Source: a virus
Lineage: Duplodnaviria; Caudoviricetes
Virus record (IMG/VR): IMGVR_UViG_3300020045_005498
Span: 1 to 28,679 of that record
Direction: 5' to 3' (one strand)
Length of the DNA: 28,679 bases
Every line of letters begins with the position of its first letter. The stretch's first letter is position 1. Position numbers and translations under genes: made by a program. Below the pieces are notes generated by a model. The model saw nothing but the letters and a program-made list of their open reading frames with translations. It was not told where the DNA came from and ran no database searches. Positions 1,485-28,629 of this stretch are shown one piece after another.

Positions 1485-2710
1485 GCCTGATGGGGAGAAT
1501 TGCCCGGCCTAAAGCCATGACCTCTGAAGAGTTATCGCGTGCTCTTGGTTCTGGATACGGCGGGCAAACTTCGACCGGCATTGCAGTAAATACTGATTCG
1601 GCAATGCGGGCCATGTCTGTGCATACGTGTGTCAAGGCAAAGGCCAACGGTTTGAAGATGATGCCCTGTCATTTGCTCAAAAAGACCAGCAAAGGCACTG
1701 AGAAGGCTACCGACCATCCACTTTACCGTATCCTGCACAGTCAACCTAACTCTTGGATGACAGCCTCTGAGTTTTGGGGCATGGCCTCTGCCTGTCTTGA
1801 CCTTCGGGGAAATTTCTTTGCACTCAAGAGCTTTGTTCCTGGCCGGCCACTCCGTGAATTGATTCCGCTGCCTGTCGGGGCCGTGCAAGAAGTAACGCAA
1901 GAGCCTGATTATGGACTGTTTTACAAGGTTTCACGGCCTGACGGTCAGGTTGATATTGTCCCTGGCAACAGAATTATGCACCTTCGGGGCCTGACCTTAG
2001 ATGGTTTTATGGGTCTCAATCCTATTGCTTACGCGCGGGAAAGTATCGGCCTTGAGCTGGCGACCGAGAAGCACGGGGCAAAGTTATTCACGAACGGCAC
2101 AAACATCGGCGGCGTGTTAACCATGCCTCCCGGCCAGTTTTTCAAGGACCGGACCAAGGCAAGAGAATTCCTTGATAGTTTCAACGATAACTACTCTTCA
2201 GTCGAAAATGCCCATAAGGCGGCACTCCTGGAAAATGGCGTTACATGGACCAAAATGGGTATGACCTCGGTTGACAGCCAGTTTCTAGAGGCTCGACGTT
2301 TCCAGCATCGACAAATTGTTGACCTATTTTTTTCCATACCCCTGTCAATAATGACATCCGAAGATAAGACCGCCACCTTCGCCAGTTCGGAACAGTTCAG
2401 CATTGCCTACGTAATGTATGCGCTGATGCCATACGTGGTCAACATCGAGCAGGCTATTACCCGCGATTTGCTCACCGAAGAAGAGAAAAAGACCTATTAC
2501 GCCAAGTTTGAGCCGAAAGCGTTACTCCGTGGCTCGTTCAAGGACCAGATGGAAGCGTTCCAAATCGGAGTTAACACCGAAATCTATAGCCCGAACGATG
2601 TCCGCGAAATGCTCGAAATGAACCCATACCCAGGCGGCGATGAATACCGAACGCGCACCAGCTCCATGAAGGAACCAGCGAAAACACCCGCAAAAGAGGA
2701 AAAAGCATGA
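1481..2710 (+). CDS. Portal protein, HK97 family
   Basis: 409 aa; HPLYRIL..QPN, LRGNFF, IMHLRG..LDG..G..PI, DSQFLEAR, SPNDVRE..EMNP motifs; position after terL. Confidence 0.96.
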   Translation: MSLMGRIARPKAMTSEELSRALGSGYGGQTSTGIAVNTDSAMRAMSVHTCVKAKANGLKMMPCHLLKKTSKGTEKATDHPLYRILHSQPNSWMTASEFWGMASACLDLRGNFFALKSFVPGRPLRELIPLPVGAVQEVTQEPDYGLFYKVSRPDGQVDIVPGNRIMHLRGLTLDGFMGLNPIAYARESIGLELATEKHGAKLFTNGTNIGGVLTMPPGQFFKDRTKAREFLDSFNDNYSSVENAHKAALLENGVTWTKMGMTSVDSQFLEARRFQHRQIVDLFFSIPLSIMTSEDKTATFASSEQFSIAYVMYALMPYVVNIEQAITRDLLTEEEKKTYYAKFEPKALLRGSFKDQMEAFQIGVNTEIYSPNDVREMLEMNPYPGGDEYRTRTSSMKEPAKTPAKEEKA

Positions 2711-3537
2711 ATCTATCATATCGCAACCAAATAAACGCCGAAATCGTGGCCGCTCACTGTAAAAAGCCGTTGAACAAACCGGAATGGTTTTCAATCAACA
2801 ATCTTTCCAGCGACAGCCCGGAAATCTTCATTTATGACTTTATCGGATGGCCGTTTAACGACGCAGGGGAGCTTATACGGGCTTTGTCGGAAATGAAAGA
2901 CAGAACGCCAACGGCAAGAATCAATTCTCCCGGCGGAGATGTCTTTGATGGTTTCTCGATACAAAACGCATTTTCCTCCCATCCTGGCGGGGTGAATGTC
3001 GTAATTGAAGGGCTGGCCGCGTCAATCGCCTCTGTCATAGCAATGGGTGGGAAAGCGGTTAGTGCGTACAGCAACTCTATGATGATGATTCACCGGTCAA
3101 TGTCGTTTATTGGTGGTCACGATACAGATCTTATAGAAATTGGCGAGTTGCTGTCAAAAATAGACAATAGCATTATCGACGCATACGCGGGGAAAACAAA
3201 ACTCGGGAAAAAAAATATTCGAGAAATGCTGGTTGGCAGCACCGGGAATGGCTCGTGGATGACGGCAAAAGAAATGAAAGAAAAAGGTTTTATAGATTCA
3301 ATCATCGACGGGAAAGGAGCAAAAGCACAATTTGACCTTTCCATGTTTGCCAATTGCCCTGACGACATACGGGGCGAAGAAAAAGAACTCACCGAAAGGG
3401 ATGCAGAAAGAATCTTGCGGGATGCCGGATTCTCTAGAAGTAAAGCCAAATCTCTGCTTGCGGGACGCTCGACAGATGACAGTGGCCAGTTAGAGGCAGT
3501 AGCAGAAAAAGCACTCTCGATATTTTTAAGCAAATAA
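2707..3537 (+). CDS. Head maturation protease, ClpP-related
   Basis: INSPGGDVFDG, GLAASIAS (catalytic Ser), MMIH (His), KGFID; C-terminal RDAERILRDAGFSRSKAK tail. Confidence 0.93.
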   Translation: MNLSYRNQINAEIVAAHCKKPLNKPEWFSINNLSSDSPEIFIYDFIGWPFNDAGELIRALSEMKDRTPTARINSPGGDVFDGFSIQNAFSSHPGGVNVVIEGLAASIASVIAMGGKAVSAYSNSMMMIHRSMSFIGGHDTDLIEIGELLSKIDNSIIDAYAGKTKLGKKNIREMLVGSTGNGSWMTAKEMKEKGFIDSIIDGKGAKAQFDLSMFANCPDDIRGEEKELTERDAERILRDAGFSRSKAKSLLAGRSTDDSGQLEAVAEKALSIFLSK

Positions 3538-3607
3538 ACAAAAGGACCGCTGTGAAGCAGGGCCGGAAACTTACTGCCGCGATGGCAGAAAGGGGTATCA
3601 AATGGCA
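3535..3607 (+). promoter_or_regulatory. Structured two-hairpin mRNA leader, copy A (upstream of major capsid)
   Basis: Near-identical scaffold to 7348-7420; hairpins GCT-GTGA-AGC and CTGCC-GCGAT-GGCAG next to the SD AAAGGGG. Confidence 0.75.
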
Positions 3608-4813
3608 GAAATCAAAGACACAATCGAAGCAATCGGCAAGGCGTTTGAAACGTTCAAAGCCGAAAACGACAGCCGACTGAAAGACATCGAAGCAAAAGGC
3701 GGTGCTGATCCTCTTTTGACTGAAAAAGTAGACAAGATCAACGTCGAACTTTTGGAAATGTCGAAGATCAAGGCGCAAATCGAATCAATCGAAACAGCCG
3801 TAGCGAGAAGCCAATTCCCAGCCGGCGGAATTGGTGTTGACCCTGCAAAAGCCGAGCACAAAGCAGCATTTGACAAGTTTTTCCGCAAAGGTGCCGAAGC
3901 TGGTCTTCGGGATCTGGAAATAAGAGCCGGTTTATCCACTCTTTCTGACCCTGACGGCGGTTTTCTTGTGCCTGAAGAGATGGATACGACGATTGACCGG
4001 ATTGCAACCAGTGTATCGGCCATGCGGAAAATCTGTTCTGTTCGGACCATCGGGACTGATACCTATAAGAAATTGGTTAATGTCGGCGGGGCTTCTTCCG
4101 GTTGGGTAGAAGAGAAAGGCGCACGCGGCGATACCGATACCCCGACGCTGAAGGAAATCGCTATCAATGCGAAAGAAATTTATGCGATGCCTGCCGCGAC
4201 TCAGACCTTGCTCGACGATGCCAGGGTTGATATTGCTGCATGGCTCGGAGATGAGGTTTCCATCGAATTTAACGAGCAAGAATCCGATGCTTTCGTTAAT
4301 GGCAATGGTGTTGGTCAGCCGAAAGGGCTTAACGCCTATGAGATGATTGCCAATGCTTCTTACGTCTGGGGCAAGGTCGGCTTTATTTCCAGCGGTCACG
4401 CTACCCTGTTGAACAATCCCGACAAGCTGAAAGACCTCAAGCACTCCCTGAAGCCTTCTTACCGTACCGGCGCTTCCTGGCTGATGAACGACAGCACCTT
4501 CCTGGTTGTCGATAAGCTCAAGGACGGTAACGGCAATTACATCTGGCGGCCGGGCCTTGTCGAGGGAACTCCTGACACCCTGTTGGGCAAGCCGATTGAA
4601 TACGATGACAACATCGCCAATATCGGGGCAAACACCTTCCCGCTCTGGTTCGGAAATTTCAAGCGGGCGTATCTTATCATTGACCGCTTTGGAATCCGTG
4701 TTCTTCGCGATCCTTATACCAGCAAGCCGTATGTGAAATTCTACACCACCAAGAGAGTTGGCGGCGGGATTATCATGTACGAGGCAGTCAAAGCCATGAA
4801 GATTGCCGCGTAA
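3602..4813 (+). CDS. Major capsid protein, HK97 fold
   Basis: 403 aa; N-terminal coiled-coil delta domain, DGGFLVPEE, FVNGNGVGQPKG, LKDGNGNYIW, LLGKPI, FGNFKRAY, RVGG motifs. Confidence 0.97.
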   Translation: MAEIKDTIEAIGKAFETFKAENDSRLKDIEAKGGADPLLTEKVDKINVELLEMSKIKAQIESIETAVARSQFPAGGIGVDPAKAEHKAAFDKFFRKGAEAGLRDLEIRAGLSTLSDPDGGFLVPEEMDTTIDRIATSVSAMRKICSVRTIGTDTYKKLVNVGGASSGWVEEKGARGDTDTPTLKEIAINAKEIYAMPAATQTLLDDARVDIAAWLGDEVSIEFNEQESDAFVNGNGVGQPKGLNAYEMIANASYVWGKVGFISSGHATLLNNPDKLKDLKHSLKPSYRTGASWLMNDSTFLVVDKLKDGNGNYIWRPGLVEGTPDTLLGKPIEYDDNIANIGANTFPLWFGNFKRAYLIIDRFGIRVLRDPYTSKPYVKFYTTKRVGGGIIMYEAVKAMKIAA

Positions 4814-4825
4814 TAAACCTGAAAT

Positions 4826-4843
4826 GGCGGGGTAAAACCCGCC
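4826..4843 (+). terminator. GC-rich hairpin after capsid gene (weak terminator or mRNA-stabilising stem)
   Basis: GGCGGG-gtaaaa-CCCGCC; no U-tract follows, so read-through is likely. Confidence 0.4.
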
Positions 4844-4867
4844 TAAAAATAACCAAAGGACAACAAA

Positions 4868-5317
4868 ATGAAAGATATTTTCAATCACATCAAACCGATT
4901 CAGGTTGTGCCGTCAATGCTCCTTATTGATGCGGCTTCCCCTGCTGCGGTGGAAAAATCCCTTGCCGGGTTTAACTCTGCGGTAATCCTCATCGACAACG
5001 GTGCCAAGCCCATAGGCGACACCGGGACCATTACCCTCAAACTCGAACATGCCGACGACAGCGCAGTTTTTGACGTTGCCGGAACCTACAACGAGGTTGA
5101 GGCTATCGACGTTCAGGGCGTTACCCCCTCAACCGGCACGGGCATCGTCTTTACCCTGGCAACGGCGGCCCAGGTAGCGGCAATTACCAAGATCGGCTAT
5201 GTCGGCGGAAAAAAATGGCTGAAATTCACCCTTGCTGAGAATGACGCAAACTCAACAGGTACACAGATTTCTGTTGTTTTGGTCAAGGGCAATGCGCTTG
5301 ATTTACCCACTACATAA
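4868..5317 (+). CDS. Putative capsid decoration/vertex protein
   Basis: 149 aa, beta-rich, directly after the MCP gene with AAAGGA RBS; MKD..N.I start and IGYVGGKKW motif resemble post-capsid virion proteins. Confidence 0.55.
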   Translation: MKDIFNHIKPIQVVPSMLLIDAASPAAVEKSLAGFNSAVILIDNGAKPIGDTGTITLKLEHADDSAVFDVAGTYNEVEAIDVQGVTPSTGTGIVFTLATAAQVAAITKIGYVGGKKWLKFTLAENDANSTGTQISVVLVKGNALDLPTT

Positions 5318-5326
5318 GGTGACACC

Positions 5327-5866
5327 ATGACCTATGTAACGAAAGTTTATAACGAGCCAGGCGGGGACCGGCAGGTTATCGCGTCTGGCGGTGAAGTACA
5401 GGTGCAAAGCGGCGGAAAGGCCCAGGTGCAGAGTGGCGGATTGCTTGAATCACAGACCGGGGCAATCGTTACCGGGTTAGCTCTTAATCTGCGAGTCAGG
5501 GCAACAACGGCAGAAGTTAACTCCGGTTTGGTTCTTTTGCCGACGCTCGCCGGGTACAAATACCGCATTACCGACCTGACCATGATAGCTATAGGCGGAA
5601 ATGCTGCAACGGCCACATCTGTTGACATTGTGACCACGCAGGGCGGCAGTGCAGCAAGACCTTTTGTTGCTGCTGTCGCGGCCCTTTCCCGGTCGGCTGT
5701 AGTCAAGCCAGATACCGCTAACATGACGGTGCTGGCCGACGGTGCATCTTTCACCGCTATGGATGTGAATACGGCGGTTTATGTGTCAAAGCAGGCGGCA
5801 GGAAGTAGCCTTGCAACGGCTACGCACATTGATGTTATTTTGTCCTACGTGATTGAGGCAGCATGA
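5327..5866 (+). CDS. Putative head fibre/decoration protein
   Basis: N-terminus MTYVTKVYNEPGGDRQVI resembles head-fibre N-termini; short 8-aa (GGxxQVQS) repeats; Ala/Thr/Val-rich. Confidence 0.5.
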   Translation: MTYVTKVYNEPGGDRQVIASGGEVQVQSGGKAQVQSGGLLESQTGAIVTGLALNLRVRATTAEVNSGLVLLPTLAGYKYRITDLTMIAIGGNAATATSVDIVTTQGGSAARPFVAAVAALSRSAVVKPDTANMTVLADGASFTAMDVNTAVYVSKQAAGSSLATATHIDVILSYVIEAA

Positions 5867-6666
5867 TCTTAACCCCATACACGCCGCCATCGGCTGAACC
5901 AATATCATTGACTCAAGCAAAGAGGCACCTTGCTCTTGCTGTCGATGATGCCGGGGCAGTGCTTTACACCGCAGAGGACGCGATAATTTCCGTCAATATC
6001 ACGGCGGCGCGTCAGTTTGCCGAGGGCATAACCTGGGCGGATATGGTTTTGCAGGTATGGGATATGTATCTTGACGCATGGCCGGCGGGCGGGGAAATCC
6101 CCCTGAACCGCTCGCCGGTTCGTGCGGTCGAATCAATCGAGTACACGGATATTGACGGGACAGTAAGCACATTCGCAAGCACAGAGTACAGCCTTGACAA
6201 TGTGTCGATGCCTGGGCGAATTGTGCTTAATTACGGTAAATCATGGCCTAGCGCGAGCCTTTCGCCGGTTAATCCGGTCAAGATTCGATTTAAGACCGGC
6301 TTTTTGGTGCCGTTTTCCGCCACTGCCGCAACCGATGTAATTAGCGCGGCGAATCATCCTTTTGTTGACGGCGATAAAGTGCGGCTGTCCGTGTCTGGCG
6401 GAACATTGCCTGCCGGTCTTGCCGCACTGACCAATTACTTTGTCCGTGACGCGGTGGCCGGGGTGTCTCTGAAATTATCGGCCACTGTCGGCTGGGCAGC
6501 GATTGATATTACCACGGCGGGAACCGGAAACATGTTCATCGGGGAGTTATCGCAGGCAATAGTACAGGCAATGCTTTTAAAGATTTCAGACCTCAAGGAA
6601 GGGGTTGACCGTAACGACGCGGCGATCAGAATTTTGCTCTCAATGGACTCGGTAAAGACGTTCTGA
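5863..6666 (+). CDS. Head-tail connector (HK97 gp6/phiE125 gp8-like) with inserted beta domain
   Basis: PSAEPISLTQAKRHL, ITAARQFAE, SPVRAVESIEYTD, VKIRFKTG ... QAIVQAMLL; about 80 extra residues between KTGF and the C-terminal helix. Confidence 0.85.
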   Translation: MILTPYTPPSAEPISLTQAKRHLALAVDDAGAVLYTAEDAIISVNITAARQFAEGITWADMVLQVWDMYLDAWPAGGEIPLNRSPVRAVESIEYTDIDGTVSTFASTEYSLDNVSMPGRIVLNYGKSWPSASLSPVNPVKIRFKTGFLVPFSATAATDVISAANHPFVDGDKVRLSVSGGTLPAGLAALTNYFVRDAVAGVSLKLSATVGWAAIDITTAGTGNMFIGELSQAIVQAMLLKISDLKEGVDRNDAAIRILLSMDSVKTF

Positions 6667-6992
6667 TGGATCATTTCAAACTTGATAAGATCGTAACTCT
6701 CCAGGCGAAAACCATGTCAACCGACGATTACGGCGGGCCGGTTGAAACATGGGCTGATTATGCCAGAATATGGGCGAAGTATAGAGAGCTTCGAGGCAGA
6801 GAACTTTTTGCAGCACAGGCCGCACAAAGTGAGACAACGGCAATGTTTTACGTCAGGTATGCGAGTTACATTGTTCCGAGTATGCGGATTATCAAAGATG
6901 GCAAGCCGTACGACATAACCGCAGTGGTCGATATTGACGGAAAAAATGTTGAAATGGAAATATCCGCTAAAACAGGACTGAGCGAGGGGTAA
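6666..6992 (+). CDS. Head closure/head-tail joining protein (SPP1 gp16-like)
   Basis: DDYGGPVETW...WA...RGRELFAAQ...VRY...MRI...YDI; 108 aa. Confidence 0.9.
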   Translation: MDHFKLDKIVTLQAKTMSTDDYGGPVETWADYARIWAKYRELRGRELFAAQAAQSETTAMFYVRYASYIVPSMRIIKDGKPYDITAVVDIDGKNVEMEISAKTGLSEG

Positions 6993-7342
6993 TGGCAACC
7001 ATCGAGGCGCAGATACAGACCCTTTTAGGCGCTCTAGTAACTGGCCGGTGCTATCCGCTCATTAATACTCAGCCGACAATAGTATTGCCGTATATCACGT
7101 TTCAGGTGATTGACGCGGTGCCGATGTTGGTCACGGCGAACATTACCAAACCGGAAAAAATGCGCTTGCAGGTTGATGTATTCGGGCAGACATACGGTTC
7201 GGTAAAAGGGATAGCCGCACAGGTAAAAACGGCGATTGATAACGCAACTTTTGCAGGAACAGCCACAATATCAAGTATGGACCTCTACGAAGAGGTAACA
7301 AAAGAACACCGAATAATGATTGAATTTTATATCTGGCCATAG
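6992..7342 (+). CDS. Tail terminator/completion protein (DUF3168-like)
   Basis: RCYP...LPYITFQ...RLQVDVFG.TY; lies directly before the major tail gene. Confidence 0.85.
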   Translation: MATIEAQIQTLLGALVTGRCYPLINTQPTIVLPYITFQVIDAVPMLVTANITKPEKMRLQVDVFGQTYGSVKGIAAQVKTAIDNATFAGTATISSMDLYEEVTKEHRIMIEFYIWP

Positions 7343-7347
7343 GCCGG

Positions 7348-7420
7348 TAAACAAAAGGACCGTCGGGACGACAGGGCCGGAAACTTACCGCTGTGAAGCG
7401 GAAAGGGGATCAAAATGGCA
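7348..7420 (+). promoter_or_regulatory. Structured two-hairpin mRNA leader, copy B (upstream of major tail protein)
   Basis: Same scaffold as 3535-3607 with different hairpins GTC-GGGAC-GAC and CCGCT-GTGA-AGCGG. Confidence 0.75.
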
Positions 7421-8059
7421 ACACCTATTGTATGGAAAAACGTAGCAGTTGCGATGCAATCAAGCATCGCTGAAGCAAAAACCATCACCGGAATCACCAA
7501 AGCAAGCCCTGGCGTAGTCTCTTCTACCGACCACGGGTACAGCAACGGCGATTATGTGTACCTCAACCTTCTTGGAATGTATCAACTCGACGAGAAAGTT
7601 GCCAGGGTGGCCAACGTCGCGGCTGGAACATTTGAGCTTGAGGGAATCGACACCACCAGCTTTGACACTTTTACCAGTGGCACCGCGCAGAAATTGACCT
7701 TTGGGACCAGTATCACCACAGCCCTGACCGTCAACGGGTCAGGCGGCGAGTTTGACTTTGTCGATACCACAACCATTCACCAGAATACCAAGACGCAGAT
7801 TCCCGGTCTTCCTTCGGCTATCTCGTATCAGTTCTCTCATATTTGGGATGCTGCTGACGCTGGACTTTTGGCAATGAAAAACGCCTCTGACATCCAAGGC
7901 AAACGGGCATTTAAATTCACGTTCGGTACTGGCGGAAAAATCCTGACATTCTCCGGTTTTGTCGGTTGCTCAATGCTTCCTGGCGGTCAGGCGCAGGGAT
8001 TGGTTACGACCAGCTCGGTTATTACCATGGACGGAACTCCGACCTATTACGCGGCGTGA
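7415..8059 (+). CDS. Major tail tube protein
   Basis: 214 aa; ITGITKASPGVV..DHG.SNGD.V insert, SGGE.DFVDTTT, QIPG, FSGFV; followed by tail chaperones and the tape measure. Confidence 0.9.
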   Translation: MATPIVWKNVAVAMQSSIAEAKTITGITKASPGVVSSTDHGYSNGDYVYLNLLGMYQLDEKVARVANVAAGTFELEGIDTTSFDTFTSGTAQKLTFGTSITTALTVNGSGGEFDFVDTTTIHQNTKTQIPGLPSAISYQFSHIWDAADAGLLAMKNASDIQGKRAFKFTFGTGGKILTFSGFVGCSMLPGGQAQGLVTTSSVITMDGTPTYYAA

Positions 8060-13980: not shown

Positions 13981-14906
13981 TCCCATACGTCATATATGCC
14001 GCTGTCAGTGTTGCGGTTGGCTTTGTCATGCAGTCTTTGCAGAAGCCGATAGAGGGGGCAAAGCTCGGAGACATTGCCAAGCAGACGGCCAGAGAGGGCG
14101 GGGAAAGGCTTATTGTCTGGGGCATAGTCAGGCCGATAGGCGGGAATATTGTTGCCTGCTCCGAACCATCGAAAACGACGACGACATCGGGAGGAAAGGG
14201 CGGAGGAAGTAGCAGCAGCAGACAGACCACAGAATCAGTCTACCGGACCTATGCAATCGGAGTATGCGAAGGGCCGATTACCGGATACCGCAGAATATGG
14301 CGGAACAACAAAATTGTGTATGATGCCCGCCTTGACGAGAATGGGGTTTTGAATGAATGGGGCGCTGCGAATAATGCTACTTTTTTACAGGCTGCAACAC
14401 TTTACAACGGATATTACGATCAGTTACCAGATGCGGCGCTTGAGTCTATTTTCGGCGTAGGTGAAGTTCCGGCAATGCGCGGAACGGCGTATATGGTTAT
14501 GGCGCACGAAAACCTTACAGATTTAGGCGGGGCCGTTCCTCAGTATATCTTTGAAGTTGTCAGGGCTGAGGGTATACCTTATACGAGTCGGCCTTATGCT
14601 GTTGAGGATGTAGATTCAATGTCTATTGACACAACATCAATAGCTTCAGGTGTGTTTAGAGCGCAACTTCTCTCATATGATGATGGCTTGACCGAAGGTA
14701 TTGAGATTGGCGAAACTATTGATTCAGGCGTGTTTAGGCAGTCTTTATTTACTTATGATGATGGCTTGACCGAAGGTATTGAGATTGGCGAAACTATTGA
14801 TTCAGGAAACATGCGGGTAGGGTTAATATTATACGAAGACGCTTTGCCTGAAGGAATAACCGTCTCTTCAACAGAAATTACATCGGGGTATTTGAATGAA
14901 AATTAA
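13968..14906 (+). CDS. Central tail/baseplate protein, N-terminal part, with C-terminal 26-aa repeats
   Basis: GGKGGG, YAIGVCEGPI, RIWRNNK, QLPD, PAMRGTAYMV, LTDLGGAVPQY.FEV are typical of the N-half of GTA-like central tail proteins. Confidence 0.8.
   Translation: MAAVVPYVIYAAVSVAVGFVMQSLQKPIEGAKLGDIAKQTAREGGERLIVWGIVRPIGGNIVACSEPSKTTTTSGGKGGGSSSSRQTTESVYRTYAIGVCEGPITGYRRIWRNNKIVYDARLDENGVLNEWGAANNATFLQAATLYNGYYDQLPDAALESIFGVGEVPAMRGTAYMVMAHENLTDLGGAVPQYIFEVVRAEGIPYTSRPYAVEDVDSMSIDTTSIASGVFRAQLLSYDDGLTEGIEIGETIDSGVFRQSLFTYDDGLTEGIEIGETIDSGNMRVGLILYEDALPEGITVSSTEITSGYLNEN
14676..14806 (+). repeat. Perfect 53-bp direct repeat (14676-14728 and 14754-14806), 78-bp period
   Basis: TATGATGATGGCTTGACCGAAGGTATTGAGATTGGCGAAACTATTGATTCAGG twice, encoding YDDGLTEGIEIGETIDSG. 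Confidence 0.95.
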
Positions 14907-19429: not shown

Positions 19430-21069
19430 TGAGTAGAAACATATTGTTAATTGTATTTTTGTTGCTCCTTGGGACAGGTTGTGGATTAAACAATCCTGGC
19501 CTATCCGATTTATCTCAGGATGTCGCGACCGTCGAGCTTGATGCCGATAACAACGGTGCGGTTGATATTGACAAAGGTGGGACGAACGAGACGACTATGG
19601 TCGAGATTGTCCCGACCGCTGATCTGACATTTGACCCTGTAACAGGTATATTTGGTGTTGCCACGACGATACCGCGGATTGCCGACATGGATACAAATGT
19701 TGAATTTGCCGCCATGTTTCCGCTTCTGTCCTTCGGCGGAGCTGTCAGTGTCACCGAACAACCAAACGATCCGCTTGCCGCTGAACTATCCACAGGCGAT
19801 TTGATCGTCGCAAGTATCAGCGGAGACATGTTTTATAAATCAGCGACTGGCCTTTATACTTTTGCCGGTGGCTATGTGGTTGACCCAACAATTCCCACAG
19901 CGTCTGACTGGGCTATTGACACAACTGGTTTAGTCCTCTCAGCGACATTCAGCGAATCTGTCTCTATCGGGGCCAACGGACAGGGAACAATCACATTGAG
20001 CTGTACTAATTCCGGCAACCATGCAATTACAGTTGATAGCGGTTTTCCTGGAGCGTCAGCCGTATTTGCAATTGGTAACGGGGCTGTCGAGGCAAGCACG
20101 ACAGACACTTGTGCCTTGTATCATACTCAACCAGGCGACGGTATCGAGGCAACTGACGATGGAACAGATTGGGCAAGCGTCGGTGCTCCTGGGGCAAGTG
20201 TCATCAATAGTAGCACGGAGCCGTCAACGTATGACATGGCTCTGACAATCACCGATACCTCAACGACCGGCGATACTTTTACGGTTGATGGTACTGCTTA
20301 CGATTACCTTGATTCTCCTGTAGCGGTCGAAGGTTTAAGTTCAGCCTCTGAGGCCATCACCTACACCGGCAGCAATACCGCCACCTGCACAGGCACTGCG
20401 GTAACTGGCGCAGGGCCATGGGCTGTTGATATGAGTGATAGTGCGGAGGATGTGGCTTGTGAGGTTACTGAGAGCGCTGTGACTTATCTGATAAATGAGG
20501 ATTTTAGCGGGACAGGTACACCTTCCGGCTGGGTTCTTACTGACACATCAGGAGCTTTCAACTTTGATGCGACGACGAACCCCTTTTCTCTATCAGGGCA
20601 GTATCTATCTATTGACTCTGCGGCGAATAGTATCAGCAAAAAGGTTTCTATTCCTGTCACCAACTACGCAACATCATATGGTGTTGCCCTGCTTAAAGTG
20701 CGAGATCTGACAACAAAAATCGCACCGATAGAGATCAGAAACTCAACTATAGCAATGGCTACACTTACTATCGAAACGAGTGGAAAGATCACCATAGGAA
20801 CCGCAGGTGGAACAGGTGTATTGACTGCTAATGTTGAAGTCGTAGTGGGAGAAGAATACTGGTTCAAATGGGTGTTTGTAACAGGCACAGGCAGTAATGC
20901 AACCTTGACAGTATCTATGTCTGATGATGGCGTAAACTGGGTACAAAAAGGGTCATCAACAAACGGAACAGCAACAGCCGACGTTGCATTTATAAACATT
21001 AATGGGACGTATTCCACTGCATCTGCCTATGATGTGAGAACTATTAAAGAATCCAATGAGAGTTTTTAA
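19429..21069 (+). CDS. Large acidic Thr/Ser-rich predicted lipoprotein with beta-sandwich domains
   Basis: Start moved to ATG 19429 (GAGGA RBS, TAATG overlap); MSRNILLIVFLLLLGTG-C signal with lipobox-like Cys; paired Cys; C-terminal EDFSG...W lectin-like domain. Confidence 0.65.
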   Translation: MSRNILLIVFLLLLGTGCGLNNPGLSDLSQDVATVELDADNNGAVDIDKGGTNETTMVEIVPTADLTFDPVTGIFGVATTIPRIADMDTNVEFAAMFPLLSFGGAVSVTEQPNDPLAAELSTGDLIVASISGDMFYKSATGLYTFAGGYVVDPTIPTASDWAIDTTGLVLSATFSESVSIGANGQGTITLSCTNSGNHAITVDSGFPGASAVFAIGNGAVEASTTDTCALYHTQPGDGIEATDDGTDWASVGAPGASVINSSTEPSTYDMALTITDTSTTGDTFTVDGTAYDYLDSPVAVEGLSSASEAITYTGSNTATCTGTAVTGAGPWAVDMSDSAEDVACEVTESAVTYLINEDFSGTGTPSGWVLTDTSGAFNFDATTNPFSLSGQYLSIDSAANSISKKVSIPVTNYATSYGVALLKVRDLTTKIAPIEIRNSTIAMATLTIETSGKITIGTAGGTGVLTANVEVVVGEEYWFKWVFVTGTGSNATLTVSMSDDGVNWVQKGSSTNGTATADVAFININGTYSTASAYDVRTIKESNESF

Positions 21070-21070
21070 T

Positions 21071-23014
21071 ATGCGAGGAATTATAATAAAACTGAATTCC
21101 GCCCTGCTTTTAATACTGTTATTCGCTCTCACTGTGTCAGCAGAAGAAATAGACGTTACGCGTGATGCAAATGGGTGGTCTGTATTTGTGCCACACGCTG
21201 ATGCCAGAATTATGTACGTTGATCCTGTAGGTGGAGATGATGGTGCAGCGGTTTATTATGCTCCATCTCATGCCGCAGTTGGTAGCGATCCATTTGACCC
21301 AATTGGGCCTATTGCAGCATATAGCACATTTACTGAGGCGTTGGGTGATGCGAGAACTGGTTACGGTGATTGGATTTTGCTGAAAAAAGGGATTGTCCTC
21401 AGGGAAAATACCGGCAGCGGCGGAGATCCATATGTTACCAGGCGTTTGCCTGCTGGATTGTCTGCTGCATACCCGACCTTATTTGGGACTTATGGAACCG
21501 GTGCAATGCCCAGGGTTGAAACAAGATCAATGGGCATAGATGTTCATGGCGCTGCATCATATGTTGCTGTACAGGGGATAGACTTTTACGCCTACACGCG
21601 CGATCCAGAAAACGTTGCCTTTGTACCGGAGGGGGATAACTCTTCAGCCGGTCTTCATTTATTTTCAGCGGGCAGTGCTGTCTCGACAGGTAGATTGATT
21701 GAGGGGTGTAAGTTTAGATTTTTTTACAATAACGGGCATGTCAGCGTACTCGCTGGTGATTGGGACGCTGGAGCCAGGATGGACGGTATAACCATACGTA
21801 GGACCAGTTTCCTTGATGCTTTTCCGGTTACTGCTGACGGCAGAGCACAAGGTCTTTTAATGGGCAGCGCCGGTGTCACTGTCGATGAGTGTATATTTGA
21901 CCATAACGGTTGGTTTGTGCAGGATGGCTCGAACATTGGTAACTCATTTAGCCAAAATATATACATGGGGTCAATGCAGGGCGTGACTGTTAAAAATACC
22001 ATATCTTCACGGCCAGCATCCATAGGTATAAAAAACGCTTCATACGGCGTTACTGGTCCAGGATATGGCCACGATGTTACTTGGACAGATAACCTCATTG
22101 TTGACGCTGAGGTTGCTTTGTCCTATTGGGCATTGGCTGTAACTGATGGGGGATTGCCTGGCGACGAGGATGTTGTTATCACCGGGAATGTCGTTTCGCA
22201 TACCGGCACAACCAGGCCGACAAACAGATCCCTTGCTTGGGGTTTCGATCCTGCTGGCATAAACAGGCTATTGTTCGCAGACAATCTCTTTGTGGATCAG
22301 GCGGCAGACCAACCAGGGTATTTGTTGCGTCCGAGAGGTTATCTTAAAGATGCAGTTTTCTCAGGTAACGTTTTCCACGATATTCCAGCGGGGTATGGTA
22401 TTAATCCTACTGTTGACACCTCCAACCCATATAACACTGACAGCAGTATAGAGTTTCGCGAAAATATCTTTGATCTTGTCGGTAATGTCAATCAGATTGC
22501 TTATGCGGCATACGATATATCCGGCACTATAAACCTTGCTGACAACACCTATTATAATGCGGCTGCGGATGGTACTAGATTTTACCATAACGGTATAAAC
22601 CGGACAGACGCACAGTGGATCTCGGAAACTGGAGATAACTCCGCATTTACGCAACCCACGTTTACCGATGACACGCGGTCGATAGAATCATACCTCGACA
22701 GTATCGGAGAGACAGCGACTATAGCCAGTTTTTATTTGTTGATAAGGTCTATGGGGTTTGATAATTGGGACACTCGCCTGACAGCACCTGCAGTAAACTC
22801 CTACATTCGCACAGGTTTCGACATGACCACAGCAGCGTTAACCTGTGCTCAGTACGCTCCAGCCTGTACCGTTGAAAACTGCGAGACTGATGGTTGGTAC
22901 TGGTACGATGATTCCTGTCACGGATCGGCAGAAGGAACACCACCAACCACGCAGCCATGGCGAGGCCCATTCCGCATAGGCGGCGCATCATTCCGTATGC
23001 CACGAGAACAATGA
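21071..23014 (+). CDS. Secreted right-handed parallel beta-helix protein (pectate-lyase/depolymerase-like)
   Basis: Signal peptide MRGIIIKLNSALLLILLFALTVSA|EE; YVDPVGGDD, GDWILLKKG, LIEGCKF, DECIFDHNGW and repeated xxxDN/GN coils; Cys-rich C-terminal module. Start could be 21056. Confidence 0.75.
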   Translation: MRGIIIKLNSALLLILLFALTVSAEEIDVTRDANGWSVFVPHADARIMYVDPVGGDDGAAVYYAPSHAAVGSDPFDPIGPIAAYSTFTEALGDARTGYGDWILLKKGIVLRENTGSGGDPYVTRRLPAGLSAAYPTLFGTYGTGAMPRVETRSMGIDVHGAASYVAVQGIDFYAYTRDPENVAFVPEGDNSSAGLHLFSAGSAVSTGRLIEGCKFRFFYNNGHVSVLAGDWDAGARMDGITIRRTSFLDAFPVTADGRAQGLLMGSAGVTVDECIFDHNGWFVQDGSNIGNSFSQNIYMGSMQGVTVKNTISSRPASIGIKNASYGVTGPGYGHDVTWTDNLIVDAEVALSYWALAVTDGGLPGDEDVVITGNVVSHTGTTRPTNRSLAWGFDPAGINRLLFADNLFVDQAADQPGYLLRPRGYLKDAVFSGNVFHDIPAGYGINPTVDTSNPYNTDSSIEFRENIFDLVGNVNQIAYAAYDISGTINLADNTYYNAAADGTRFYHNGINRTDAQWISETGDNSAFTQPTFTDDTRSIESYLDSIGETATIASFYLLIRSMGFDNWDTRLTAPAVNSYIRTGFDMTTAALTCAQYAPACTVENCETDGWYWYDDSCHGSAEGTPPTTQPWRGPFRIGGASFRMPREQ

Positions 23015-24151: not shown

Positions 24152-24351
24152 GGCGCAATTACTCGCAAAAGCCCTGGAAATATGCACGTGATCTGAATTT
24201 TATCAAAGGTGGACGGTTGCTTGTCGAAACGAAATATTTTCAGGAGCTGGGCGAGTGGTGGGAAAGGCAGAATAAGCTTTGCATGTGGGGCGGTCGTTTT
24301 AAAAGCGGAGACGCAGGACATTTTAGTTTGACGCATGATGGACGGGCATGA
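24093..24351 (+). pseudogene. M15-family (L-Ala-D-Glu/D-Ala-D-Ala peptidase) endolysin with internal deletion and frameshift
   Basis: One frame gives MTLGEK-MTLGEKQELFFRLEAQLLAKALEICT* (24093-24191). The +1 frame gives ARDLNF...LGEWWE...WGGRF..DAGHFS..HDGRA*. The central RT..Q...SxH segment is missing. Confidence 0.75.
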
Positions 24352-24533
24352 GCAAAACAAAGCAGAACATACAGAAAAGCAAGCGCGGCGACGGTGCGGA
24401 ATTCTGGTCACGTAGACCGCTTGCCGGATTGCCTGTTTGCGCTGAAAATAAAAGGCTTTGCCGGCGTATTGAGCGGCGGCGAAAATGGCGGGAGATTATG
24501 CGGGAATTTCGCTTATGGGGGATGGCCAGTTGA
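24348..24533 (+). CDS. Small basic hypothetical protein
   Basis: 61 aa, Arg/Lys-rich, EFWSRRP motif; ATGA overlap. Confidence 0.6.
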   Translation: MSKTKQNIQKSKRGDGAEFWSRRPLAGLPVCAENKRLCRRIERRRKWREIMREFRLWGMAS

Positions 24534-24535
24534 TA

Positions 24536-24692
24536 TGTCAATTCCTGTCAACTGGTCTATTTAATCATTTTGTGGCTTTCCTTGCTGCTGTTGGCTGGGG
24601 GACAAGGGCTCGAACCTTGATAAGCGGAGTCAGAGTAATCGTATCGTCCGCAAACCCTTTGTGGCAAATGGTTGCAGAGGCACAAATTGACA
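24536..24692. promoter_or_regulatory. Candidate integrase arm-type sites flanking att core
   Basis: TGTCAATT (24536-24543), TGTCAACT (24546-24553) and inverted AATTGACA (24685-24692). Confidence 0.4.
24592..24636 (-). other. att core (attP-like): 3' half of tRNA-Gln(CTG)
   Basis: Minus strand ACTCTGACTCCGCTTATCAAGGTTCGAGCCCTTGTCCCCCAGCCA = anticodon loop CT-CTG-AC, T arm CAAGG-TTCGAGC-CCTTG, acceptor strand and GCCA; no 5' half; about 60 bp from the integrase stop. Confidence 0.88.
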
Positions 24693-26908: not shown

Positions 26909-27091
26909 ATGACCCCATTCGAGCAAATGGTCTTGGATAAACTCCAGGCCATAGACGAGAAAATCGAGGCATACATCAACCCGTGCAAATCTCTCGAAAT
27001 ATCCGAGAAAGCGCGGATCATGAAAAAAGCACTGGCGACCGGAGACAAAAAGATGATCCGCGAAGCTGGGCGACGAATCAACGGAGAGTGA
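26909..27091 (+). CDS. Small hypothetical early protein
   Basis: 60 aa, AAGGG RBS, fills the gap between neighbours. Confidence 0.6.
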   Translation: MTPFEQMVLDKLQAIDEKIEAYINPCKSLEISEKARIMKKALATGDKKMIREAGRRINGE

Positions 27092-27093
27092 AA

Positions 27094-27753
27094 ATGACAC
27101 AAGAAAAAACAGTCAAAGGCTACAAAGCGACAGATAAAAACATGCAGTGCAGGGGGTTTCAGTTTGAGCTTGGAAAATGGTACAAGCACGATGGTGAGAT
27201 TGCCATGTGTGAAAGCGGGTTTCACTTCTGCGAGTTTCCTTCGGGGCCGTGGTGTTTTTATTCAAGAGACGATACGCGGATTTTCAGGGTCGAAGCAAAA
27301 GGAGTTGTGTTGGGTGAAGGACCAGGCGCAGACTTAAAGCATGTTGCCATGGAAATACGCCTGACTGAAGAAATATTTTTCACCGGGGACGGGAACACCG
27401 GGCACGGGAACACCGGGGACGGGAACACCGGGGACGGGAACACCGGGGACGGGAACACCGGGGACGGGAACACCGGGAACTGGAACACCGGGCACTGGAA
27501 AACCGGGGACGGGAACGCAACAGATAAATGTTCTGGCCACCTGTGCATGAAAGAACAGCCGGTAATCATCTTTGACAAAAAAGTAATTCCAGGAGTGATA
27601 GTGCCATATTGGTTGATTGAAGAACTATCCGACCTTCTGTCCCGCGATGAAGAAATAGATAACATCGATAGATTTCTTGAAATTCCGAACGCTACTAAAA
27701 AAGCAATTATGTCGCTGCACCACGCCCACATAGAGCGGAGGAAATCAAAATGA
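27094..27753 (+). CDS. Phage protein with KGYK..CRG..GFHFC domain and TGDGN pentapeptide repeats
   Basis: Start moved to ATG 27094 (GGAG RBS); paralogue of 27904..28629. Confidence 0.8.
   Translation: MTQEKTVKGYKATDKNMQCRGFQFELGKWYKHDGEIAMCESGFHFCEFPSGPWCFYSRDDTRIFRVEAKGVVLGEGPGADLKHVAMEIRLTEEIFFTGDGNTGHGNTGDGNTGDGNTGDGNTGDGNTGNWNTGHWKTGDGNATDKCSGHLCMKEQPVIIFDKKVIPGVIVPYWLIEELSDLLSRDEEIDNIDRFLEIPNATKKAIMSLHHAHIERRKSK
27382..27516 (+). repeat. 15-bp tandem repeat x9 (TGDGN)
   Basis: Consensus ACCGGGGACGGGAAC, in frame. Confidence 0.95.
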
Positions 27754-27866
27754 AAGAAATCCTCATACACGCGGCAAAAACAGCGGCAAAAACAGCGATC
27801 ATTTTCGGGATTTTCCTTCTTTGTGCGGCCACATTCTTTACGAGTTGGGCCGAGAGGATTGGGTGA
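27750..27866 (+). CDS. Small membrane peptide (38 aa), not in ORF track
   Basis: GGAGG RBS and ATGA overlap; MKEILIHAAKTAAKTAIIFGIFLLCAATFFTSWAERIG; contains a 12-bp tandem duplication at 27771-27794. Confidence 0.6.
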   Translation: MKEILIHAAKTAAKTAIIFGIFLLCAATFFTSWAERIG

Positions 27867-27903
27867 TGCCATGAGAAACTATGACAGTAATCAAGGAGAC
27901 ACA

Positions 27904-28629
27904 GTGGAAACAATCAAAGGTTACAAAGCCACGGACAAAAACCTTCAGTGTCGCGGATATCAGTTCGAAATAGGCAAAACTTACACTCACGATGGTGAAA
28001 TCAGCCTGTGCAATAGCGGCTTTCATTTTTGCGAAAACCCGCTTGATGTGTTGGGTTTTTACAATCTGTGCGAAAGCGAGTTTTTGGCTGTCGAGTCTGC
28101 GGGGAAATGTAAAAAAGACAACAAAAAAACGGTCACGAACAAGCTGAAAGTATCAGCGTCTATCGGGTTGCCTGGGCTGATAAAAGCATCTGTTGAGTGG
28201 ATTTTTAAGAACACAGATAAAGTCAAGAGCATAGAAGACAACGGATATTCCAGCCAACTGGCCGCATCAGGAAAATACAGCAAACTGGCCGCGTCAGGAG
28301 ATTCCAGCAAACTGGCCGCATCAGGAGATTCCAGCAAACTGGCCGCATCAGGAGAATACAGCAAACTGGCCGCGTCAGGAGATTCCAGCAAACTGGCCGC
28401 ATCAGGAGATTCCAGCAAACTGGCCGCGTCAGGATATTCCAGCAAACTGGCCGCATCAGGAGATTCCAGCCAACTGGCCGCATCAGGATATTCCAGCCAA
28501 CTGGCCGCATCAGGAGATTCCAGCCAACTGGCCGCATCAGGAGATTCCAGCAAACTGGCCGCATCAGGAGATTCCAGCAAACTGGCCGCAGCAGGAGAGA
28601 CCAGCAAAGTGGCCGCAGCAGGAGATTAA
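27904..28629 (+). CDS. Second KGYK..CRG..GFHFC domain protein with 9-aa repeats (3' end uncertain)
   Basis: GTG 27904 after AAGGAG; (GDSSKLAAS)n; the repeat pattern continues past the TAA. Confidence 0.78.
   Translation: METIKGYKATDKNLQCRGYQFEIGKTYTHDGEISLCNSGFHFCENPLDVLGFYNLCESEFLAVESAGKCKKDNKKTVTNKLKVSASIGLPGLIKASVEWIFKNTDKVKSIEDNGYSSQLAASGKYSKLAASGDSSKLAASGDSSKLAASGEYSKLAASGDSSKLAASGDSSKLAASGYSSKLAASGDSSQLAASGYSSQLAASGDSSQLAASGDSSKLAASGDSSKLAAAGETSKVAAAGD

Follow-up and report, generated by a model that had tools for sequence, protein, structure and literature searches.

A hairpin unit resembling 23S rRNA helix 93 precedes phage virion genes and may act as a translational brake read by RluB

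Two leader copies at the capsid and tail genes

The window, by which we mean the whole 28,679-nucleotide stretch analysed (IMG/VR virus record IMGVR_UViG_3300020045_005498, Caudoviricetes), carries a major capsid gene and a major tail gene, each preceded by one copy of a two-hairpin leader (copy A, 3535-3607; copy B, 7348-7420; Table 1). Both copies, which the original prediction had described as a duplicated leader ahead of these two genes, were confirmed letter for letter, and so was its description of four inserts that all base-pair and close a GNGA(N) loop, with one mismatch retained in each outer stem. The lower strand of hairpin A2 overlaps the Shine-Dalgarno sequence (SD), G7401 of hairpin B2 lies 13 nt upstream of the tail gene ATG, and the A-rich strand before A1 is likely a standby stretch for the ribosome or S1. 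A descriptor of the geometry alone, run on both strands of the window, returned exactly four hairpins, A1, A2, B1 and B2, which are not due to chance. A covariance-model search of the window found no third copy (next-best match, E 0.63); copies A and B themselves score E ~1e-23 to 1e-25, as expected for members of the training set. Since folding energy is ordinary for each copy taken as a whole (z -0.73 and -1.94) and unremarkable for the upstream hairpins (z -0.92 and -0.08), and is notable only in the two SD-proximal hairpins (z -3.2 and -3.8), the evidence for structure is covariation and not stability. The leader has no match in Rfam 15 (cmscan), in keeping with the original prediction, which recognised no named family in it; the sole Rfam match in the window at E<=5 lies outside the leader copies (21025-21074, E 4.8). 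A promoter and terminator scan gave scores no higher than those of shuffles.

Table 1. Leader features and neighbouring genes in the window
Feature	Position	Strand	Basis or detail
Head maturation protease	2707..3537	+	phrog_133; TAA stop 3535-3537 begins copy A
A-rich single strand 5' of hairpin A1	3536..3543	+	sequence
Hairpin A1, bulged, putative helix 93 mimic	3544..3564	+	GTGA loop 3552-3555
A1 bulge	A3559	+	equivalent to A2602 position
A1 mismatch	A3546·G3562	+	equivalent to A2589·U2605 position
A1 pair	G3545-C3563	+	equivalent to G2588-C2606 position
Hairpin A2, putative mimic without bulge	3570..3592	+	GCGA+T loop 3579-3583; five pairs
A2 mismatch	A3573·A3589	+	G3588 is 13 nt upstream of ATG
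Shine-Dalgarno-like AAGGGG, capsid gene	3590..3595	+	sequence
Major capsid protein (major head protein), HK97-type	3602..4813	+	phrog_10, E 3e-78
Tail terminator gene, 5' of copy B	6992..7342	+	phrog_347
Hairpin B1	7357..7378	+	GGGA+C loop 7365-7369; bulged A7373; A7359·G7376 mismatch
Hairpin B2	7384..7405	+	GTGA loop 7393-7396; five pairs; A7387·A7402 mismatch
Shine-Dalgarno-like AAGGGG, tail gene	7403..7408	+	sequence
Major tail protein	7415..8059	+	phrog_584, E 5e-40

The hairpin unit and its spread over viruses

Each window copy consists of two versions of one unit, namely a GNGA(+N) loop, five pairs, an A·non-U mismatch and then more pairs (7-8 per hairpin), with an optional 3' bulge placed after the third pair. 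The idea of exchangeable stems in a fixed scaffold was not borne out, as both slots hold this same unit, single-unit leaders are common, and the 10-mer common to copies A and B is an allele found in other phages too; the scaffold letters are lineage-specific, and the exact-scaffold pattern had 0 matches in viral contigs. Among homologues the unit covaries strongly, a check that had been proposed from the start. The third-position G is invariant, and the loop spellings (n=114) are GTGA 49, GGGA 31, GAGA 20 and GCGA 14, on which a CsrA/RsmA site, with its GGA in the loop, was rejected. A processing stem for RNase III of the T7 type is a long duplex of ~20 pairs, and was rejected on the number of pairs per hairpin.

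The unit lies 9-16 nt upstream of a start codon in 114 of 134 viral contexts (mode 12-13 nt), as would befit a mimicry-type operator at the ribosome-binding site, a spacing that, like the letter at the position of 2605, is partly forced in the SD-proximal hairpins by search patterns requiring AAGG. The upstream hairpins were left unconstrained by these patterns, and here the sixth position is unpaired in 42/43 (42/42 in a metagenome set that shares some contigs with the former), with its two neighbours paired in 40/43 and 42/43. The seventh pair is G-C in 38/43, the fifth is C-G in 34/43 and A-U in 3/43, and the bulged base is A in 13 of 17. Folding predicts a pre-formed hairpin in 83-84% of leaders, and group II introns commonly hold GNRA-type hairpins, both of which would suit a fold that acts with no protein reader, either as a stabiliser of the 5' end once the RNA has been processed within the A-rich strand, or through tertiary contacts as a GNRA module. 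We consider this very unlikely, since a stabiliser would not retain the sixth-position mismatch, the invariant third G and the fixed loop spelling, the folding energy of the whole copies is nothing unusual, and the occurrence at rluB described below would be left unexplained. A refolding switch was likewise rejected: in the copy folded alone the 3' strand of the upstream hairpin pairs with AUGGC, but when the SD-proximal hairpin (and not the upstream one) was held folded the median gain in SD/AUG opening was ~0 kcal/mol, which argues against activation by refolding.

At least seven major-capsid families have the unit ahead of their genes, as do tail-tube genes and the coat genes of ssRNA phages, the latter in three ssRNA phage records and in RefSeq NC_073808.1. 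Among 60 ORFs tested behind it, 19 encode major capsid and 8 major tail proteins, with 13 and 6, respectively, among 58 ORFs of a further set; low-copy genes (portal, tape measure, endolysin, antirepressor) are also found there, and the suggestion that the leader sets subunit stoichiometry was not supported. The proposal of a structured RNA that acts in cis where translation of high-copy virion genes begins, and that a protein probably binds, is supported. The unit is not inherited with the capsid gene, because it is absent from all 80 loci of relatives of this gene, a capsid 86% identical included. With another leader pattern, 3 of 47 matched loci were true leaders. Among cultured tailed phages, short BLAST searches gave no case of the unit next to a structural gene, a match in Ralstonia RSF1 being rejected after it failed the geometry test, and the hairpin spelling of the E. 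coli type matched viral contigs once, without a start codon.

The suggested likeness to lambda boxB did not survive this distribution. The boxB of lambda and P22 shares the short hairpin form and a GNRA-like loop with one added base, and acts in transcription with the phage N protein near early promoters, whereas the position of our unit is linked to start codons and RNA phages carry it too; as ssRNA phages have no transcription step and no common phage reader was found, the comparison fails and a boxB/N antitermination site was rejected. The only protein content common to the window and eight further motif-bearing dsDNA records is a terminase-like and an integrase-like protein, and no RluB gene was found in any of them, five of the eight fetched records being <90% complete or read in part; nor does an RluB-like gene lie downstream of the unit in 105 metagenome contexts. 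It is highly improbable that a phage-encoded protein (N/boxB-like, Com-like or structural) binds the hairpins, as had been suggested: boxB pentaloops do resemble the GNGA+N loop and the window holds a small Arg-rich ORF with no Pfam match (24348-24533), but no small protein common to the nine dsDNA records was found, within their stated completeness, and the unit is also present in ssRNA phages and bacterial chromosomes. A host reader is favoured, since ssRNA phage coat genes carry the unit and the dsDNA records share no reader and encode no RluB.

Bacterial rluB leaders and copies away from start codons

The only cellular gene leaders found with the unit are those of rluB itself, in 28 of 30 Bacteriovoracales loci and in E. 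coli. All 30 of the Bacteriovoracales rluB-like leaders have the core hairpin, the 28 its full geometry, and the hairpin-to-start spacing has a mode of 13, the same as in phage. Across whole genomes, 25 of 41 Bacteriovoracales have a single match each, always at an rluB-like gene and with 0 control matches, and 18 of 20 matches phylum-wide are at rluB. The enzyme is termed RluB-like by its best score, the upstream scpB and an RluB-type bulge loop, and it falls under the NCBIfam RluB cut-off (150 vs 290 bits). A model built from 21 phage leaders only recovered the five rluB leaders given to it (best E 1.7e-6, weakest 0.19). The bona fide E. coli rluB leader also has the geometry (shuffle rate 0.25%), with a third pair C-G instead of G-C and a distance of 18 nt from the ATG; the E. 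coli rluF leader is without it. Elsewhere the full geometry was found in 1/28 rluB leaders of a Clostridia order and 0/16 of a mixed sample, a Clostridia rluB hairpin (L500) was rejected as not general and failing the full geometry, and the rluB leader of the Desulfocapsa genome closest to the probable host is without the hairpin.

No other host leader was found in the sampled Desulfobulbia (301 genomes), Desulfobacterota (221 genomes; 30 of 33 matches inspected), Desulfobulbales (121), Spirochaetota (150) and Acidobacteriota (150), which speaks against a translation enhancer read by another host component, be it 30S, S1 or a factor recognising helix 93 or the 16S GUGA hairpin. Such a general enhancer would be expected before highly expressed host genes, and in Bacteriovoracales the site is only at rluB. 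Some upstream hairpins end in GAT as in the genomic stretch upstream of the 23S loci, which we take to be 16S, the 5' flanks of the motif are generally A-rich and G-poor, and the missing hairpin at rluB of the probable host would also fit; the 16S likeness is, however, limited to three pairs and the loop, and we regard this possibility as unlikely.

Some copies of the unit have no SD nearby. A Desulfobulbales repeat of the group II intron type has 14 of them, within intron domain I; the unit also lies in a part of Klebsiella phage phiKp_21 that is free of genes, and twice in an intergenic region of crAss002. Because of such copies away from start codons and in group II introns, the chief alternative to the brake proposed below is a role in stabilising the RNA or boosting its output. 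Bound RluB would cap the RNA 5' of the ribosome footprint and shield it from nucleases while the start region is kept free, giving a higher yield of virion protein. This would explain why the unit stands before those genes of dsDNA and ssRNA phages that are in greatest demand, the copies in intron domain I and in non-coding phage DNA offer a brake no target, and the stretch from SD to AUG opens at no greater cost than in leaders without the motif (5.7 vs 5.95 kcal/mol). We nevertheless find it somewhat unlikely, since finding the geometry ahead of rluB itself most simply points to negative feedback, the first SD letters would lie under a ~30-kDa enzyme that covers positions 2587-2607, and holding the hairpin brings no refolding gain.

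Likeness to helix 93 and a possible brake on virion synthesis

According to PMC3919597, helix 93 of 23S rRNA (nt 2587-2607) is the substrate of RluB (U2605) and RluF (U2604); as an RluB substrate it consists of the loop, then three pairs, the bulged A2602 and two pairs, with the loop pinned by the S4 domain of RluB and U2605 flipped out between G2588-C2606 and A2590-U2604. The unit has the layout of helix 93 as bound by RluB, with its mismatch where the target U flips out. Compared with helix 93, whose sequence was also taken directly from bacterial genomes, it shares the GNGA loop, the G at 2592, three pairs, an optional bulge at the A2602 position and two further pairs, so that five pairs are stacked, followed by the A at 2589 opposite the unpaired flip-out position and the pair G2588-C2606 beneath (mostly G-C in the unit). 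It differs in lying in mRNA, in having bulge-free forms and loops with one extra base, and in the pair 2590-2604, mostly C-G in the unit and A-U in rRNA. U at the flip-out position, which a true, modified RluB substrate would have, was found in 1/43 and 1/42 upstream hairpins, and the window hairpins have G, A, G and A, so there is nothing in them to modify. For each of the two 23S loci, the best match of the phage-only model is helix 93, with weak scores (E 0.1 and 0.65). With this match, the covarying fold at a fixed distance from start codons in unrelated phages, and the same geometry in the enzyme's own leader in two bacterial lineages, the unit is probably a non-modifiable mimic of the RluB substrate, read by RluB or a close relative of the RsuA family.

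If the reader is of the RluB type, we lean slightly towards a net effect like that of thrS, a brake or threshold on translation. The thrS operator controls the gene of its own enzyme and mimics tRNA, whereas the window leaders are putative rRNA mimics on virus genes. In E. coli thrS, as described in PMC3858243, the enzyme's substrate is copied as two hairpins by the SD with an unstructured strand upstream, and free ThrRS binds the two hairpins and blocks 30S. The brake is favoured because the A-rich strand, two hairpins and SD match this layout, and because phage and Bacteriovoracales rluB leaders have the same start-codon spacing. Similarly, the leaders of uL1, uS8 and bL20 use rRNA mimicry, the mRNA site competing with newly made rRNA for the protein (PMC10931766). 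Here, in contrast, we propose a modifying enzyme as the reader, and the site occurs in phages, a group II intron and the reader's own gene; in the window the copies precede capsid and tail genes, and only the rluB copies stand at the gene of the reader. The rRNA methylases KsgA, ErmC and Sgm are under autogenous control, binding a substrate-like site in their own mRNA, which fits the rluB leaders although they are another enzyme class, and we know of no phage use of such control. Structured RNAs directly 5' of phage structural genes have been described in GP20-a, GP20-b and other candidate leaders (PMC10690425); our unit differs in having no Rfam match, and an unnamed candidate in the alignments of that work may overlap it. 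Six spellings of the motif were absent from six supplementary files of PMC10690425; its files 1, 2 and 4 lay outside the coverage and may contain an unnamed version, as may the likewise uncovered supplement of PMC5737381; the literature covered gave no description of the motif or of RluB autoregulation.

We hypothesise that the S4 domain of RluB would hold the GNGA loop, with the sixth-position mismatch offering a pre-opened flip-out site without a U to modify. RluB bound beside the SD would then restrain translation of the capsid and tail genes, with release once new rRNA or an excess of phage mRNA draws the enzyme off; virion synthesis would in this way depend on host growth, and leaky late transcripts would be muted. 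As a whole, this reading of the unit as an RluB-mimic brake relieved by rRNA synthesis is tentative, and we give it slightly less than even chances. The fifth pair is C-G in most units and not A-U as in helix 93, the E. coli hairpin departs at the third pair and in its distance from the ATG, most rluB leaders, that of the nearest Desulfocapsa included, are without the hairpin, and the Bacteriovoracales enzyme scores below the cut-off. Furthermore, a brake is counter-intuitive on the most-needed genes, above all the ssRNA coat gene, and the copies of the intron repeat, phiKp_21 and crAss002 have no SD nearby. A broader proposal, on which we are a shade more doubtful, is one of separate origins: a dead-end copy of helix 93, a helix of the peptidyl-transferase centre, would have evolved in unrelated dsDNA phages, in ssRNA phages and in a group II intron to capture RluB. 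Free RluB would serve as a host-range-portable sensor of ribosome synthesis that times virion production, and RluB would be a so far unrecognised translational regulator of its own gene, in lineages ranging from E. coli to Bacteriovorax, as well as a general phage host factor. The link to helix 93 and RluB was absent from the original prediction.

If RluB is the reader, an rRNA-modifying enzyme would moonlight as an mRNA regulator, and viruses of two realms would exploit it on their most abundant genes, providing a concrete route by which phage output could track host growth or capsid mRNA could be stabilised. As the rluB leader of E. coli K-12 itself carries the hairpin, the system is directly accessible there. 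Should another protein read it, the unit still counts as a phage RNA motif of wide occurrence and strong covariation that Rfam does not contain, and it can help to flag the genes for capsid, tail-tube and coat proteins in uncultured phages.

The hairpin unit and its place before the start codon

Copies A and B of the two-hairpin leader were found in the window letter for letter, and no Rfam family matches the element. Comparison of relatives showed that both hairpins of a leader are copies of one unit, and that the stems originally taken for exchangeable modules are alleles of it. The unit is topped by a GNGA loop, sometimes one base longer, above three pairs, the third with a fixed G, and an optional 3' bulge; below the bulge site come two pairs, then an A facing a non-pairing base, then at least two pairs. 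On its 5' side the flank is rich in A and poor in G. The covariation on which the original prediction had staked the fold was borne out in 21 two-hairpin leaders, with 98.6% of cells paired and two-sided changes at 10 of 14 pairs, a level that none of 500 shuffles (a control inflated by related sequences) and no slid register came near. Whole-copy folding energy is not unusual (z of -0.73 for A and -1.94 for B).

Among the viral matches listed, the start codon lies 9-16 nt past the lower G in 114 of 134 distinct SD-proximal contexts, most often at 12-13 nt. At two positions the search pattern permitted either pyrimidine with either purine, and these are Watson-Crick in 112/114 and 113/114 listed start-bearing contexts versus expectations of 65.5 and 57.2; in the 20 listed contexts without a start codon the first scored position is at chance (10 vs 10). 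A metagenome scan, whose contigs are partly those of the viral set, agrees: among the matches listed, 112 of 113 contexts are fully paired and 105 have a start codon. A second, upstream hairpin occurs at 49 loci among the 114 (0.9% in shuffles). In seven spirochaete-type phage leaders a variant upstream hairpin recurs between palindromic CATG flanks and breaks the A·R rule, with C·C at the sixth position. Separately, a cassette of promoter-like letters followed by hairpin and SD recurs before varied small genes, some excisionase-like, on phage-like contigs related to spirochaete prophages.

Genes and viruses carrying the unit

The window is part of a temperate siphophage genome with terminase, portal, protease, HK97-type capsid, tail tube, integrase and repressor. 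Its host is probably a Desulfobulbales bacterium, as judged from sequence: a tail-tube-like gene in a Desulfocapsa assembly is preceded by a nearly identical two-hairpin leader, and the same assembly, unlike four other genomes compared, matches the att-like stretch next to the integrase with two mismatches. This stretch resembles a tRNA 3' end, and one Desulfocapsa contig, on which ARAGORN found no full tRNA, carries a near match to it at either end. Elsewhere in the window, at the late region's end, lies an Arg-rich ORF of 61 aa that has no Pfam match and no relative among eight motif-bearing phages. Two neighbouring ORFs are paralogues with a common N-terminal domain and with tandem repeats of 15 nt and 27 nt at their ends, and a direct repeat within a tail gene gives a 26-residue duplication.

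Coordinates of features (L-numbers are our handles for fetched loci and contigs)
Feature	Sequence	Positions
HK97-type capsid gene	window	3602-4813
Tail tube gene	window	7415-8059
Perfect 53-nt direct repeat	window	14676-14728 and 14754-14806
Arg-rich ORF	window	24348-24533
att-like stretch adjoining integrase	window, reverse strand	24590-24623
Paralogous ORFs	window	26983-28629
Repeat-bearing tail-tube leader	L132	~2330-2422
CATG-flanked variant hairpin	L235, L241, L294, L369, L635, L680, L729	
Promoter-like/hairpin/SD cassette	L214, L329, L391/L700, L627, L634, L642, L671, L696, L727	
crAss002 unit copies	L519	1505-1575
Group II intron units	L749-L770	
Bacteriovoracales rluB leaders	L433-L462	
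Klebsiella phage phiKp_21 unit	L805 (LC768486.1)	20004-20022
E. coli rluB leader hairpin	L800 (NZ_CP195973.1)	1467-1484

The four closest tail-tube loci (85-91%) all carry the unit, and it is absent from all 80 capsid-relative loci, an 86% identical capsid included. On one further contig the tail gene and the contig's own, distant, capsid gene are preceded by identical copies, which suggests that the unit may be copied within genomes. At another tail-tube gene, 83% identical, four CCGGG(G)AA repeats occupy the leader in place of the unit. Among the viral matches listed, 60 of 88 downstream ORFs were tested and 33 are structural, including 19 major capsid (seven PHROG families) and 8 major tail proteins; the others comprise one endolysin, seven of unknown function and 19 with no match. 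In the metagenome set 58 of 105 listed were tested, 25 being structural and three pointing to an antirepressor, an excisionase-like protein and a primase.

Three records with maturation and replicase genes are ssRNA phages, with the hairpin before the middle gene, and RefSeq NC_073808.1 has a similar stretch directly before an annotated coat gene. Eight dsDNA records and the window together hold 25 units (1.0 in shuffles); only terminase-like and integrase-like proteins are common to at least three of them, and none encodes RluB. Given its occurrence in both dsDNA and ssRNA phages and the few proteins shared by the nine dsDNA sequences, the element works at the RNA level and is likely read by a host molecule; that the phages encode the reader themselves is highly improbable.

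The unit also occurs at sites without an SD. In 121 Desulfobulbales genomes, 14 of 23 model matches fall in one repeated element, and at 7 of 8 tested loci a group II intron domain begins just downstream on the same strand. Here the unit is an accessory hairpin ~60 nt from the apparent 5' end of the intron family, with the mismatch kept and with compensatory changes, among them one at the closing pair. In phiKp_21 it sits in 2.1 kb devoid of genes, inside an apparent larger paired region with no Rfam match, possibly a phage non-coding RNA. crAss002 has two exact copies, 52 nt apart, intergenic and upstream of gp72.

Likeness to helix 93 and occurrence at rluB

The RluB substrate is 23S 2587-2607, in which the S4 domain pins a four-base loop, A2602 is bulged and U2605 is flipped out between G2588-C2606 and A2590-U2604; with RluF, A2602 is folded in and U2604 flipped (PMC3919597). 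When helix 93 sequences taken from genomes were aligned with the window hairpins, all four reproduced this layout, A1 and B1 bulge included, A2 and B2 bulge-free. All four carry a purine where helix 93 has U2605. Against the likeness, the fifth pair of the unit differs from that of the rRNA. In upstream hairpins, which lay outside the search-pattern constraints, this sixth, flip-out position is unpaired in 42/43 and 42/42 of the matches listed, and its neighbours pair. A covariance model trained solely on phage leaders matches rluB leaders and, weakly, helix 93.

Besides prophage leaders, a scan of prokaryote genomes picked up seven Bacteriovoracales loci in which the hairpin adjoins the start of a gene for an S4-domain pseudouridine synthase. 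The best family of this synthase is RluB, with a score under cut-off; its gene sits after scpB and the protein has the RluB-type bulge loop. In loci picked by protein alone, the core hairpin is present in 30/30 and the full geometry in 28/30 Bacteriovoracales leaders. When 41 genomes were searched in full, 25 gave a single match, always at the rluB-like gene, and controls have none; the pattern was derived from these leaders themselves, so that uniqueness is the sole real test. In the E. coli rluB leader a hairpin built of a GGGA loop, then five Watson-Crick pairs, A·A and a G-C lies 18 nt before the ATG, in a stretch present in 5420/5426 E. coli genomes. This is the only descriptor match in 30 kb (shuffle rate 0.25%); its third pair is unlike the phage consensus, and the rluF leader lacks the hairpin. 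In both lineages it is a candidate autoregulatory site, of which the literature searched gave no description.

Against an RluB link, most rluB leaders lack the unit (1/28 and 0/16 carry it in two other samples), as does that of the Desulfocapsa genome. No other host gene leader had it in five genome samples; that a different host molecule reads it seems to us rather unlikely. An RluB-type reader is probable, and we consider it quite likely that these non-modifiable mimics are bound by RluB itself or by a near relative.

A proposed reading by RluB

The analysis establishes the unit's fold, spread, position, helix 93 likeness and presence at rluB; it is real, widespread and apparently undescribed. 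The literature as far as it could be consulted describes neither the motif nor RluB as an mRNA regulator; the motif is not described in the accessible parts of PMC10690425, PMC5737381, PMC7491321 and bioRxiv 2026.09.15.751765, and an unnamed version may stand in the alignment supplements to the first two of these. By analogy the unit resembles known substrate-mimic operators, and we found no precedent for viral use with a host rRNA-modifying enzyme.

Folding computation indicates that the SD-proximal hairpin is pre-formed. With the hairpin unbound, the openness of SD-to-AUG equals that in 38 control leaders, and opening -20 to +13 costs 13.1 kcal/mol versus 9.5 in these controls. Holding the hairpin folded does not open the SD. 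Stabilisation mediated by RluB strikes us as doubtful, if the least unlikely of the alternatives, and an effect of the fold alone as improbable. With their A-rich, G-poor 5' flank the phage leaders have the layout of thrS, in which two hairpins are bound by free enzyme and the 30S is blocked (PMC3858243); in leaders that mimic rRNA, newly made rRNA brings about release (PMC10931766). The phage hairpin-to-start spacing equals that in Bacteriovoracales rluB leaders. The reading to which we commit, tentatively and with its direction of effect predicted, is that RluB bound at the unit would act as a translational brake or threshold coupled to host ribosome synthesis.
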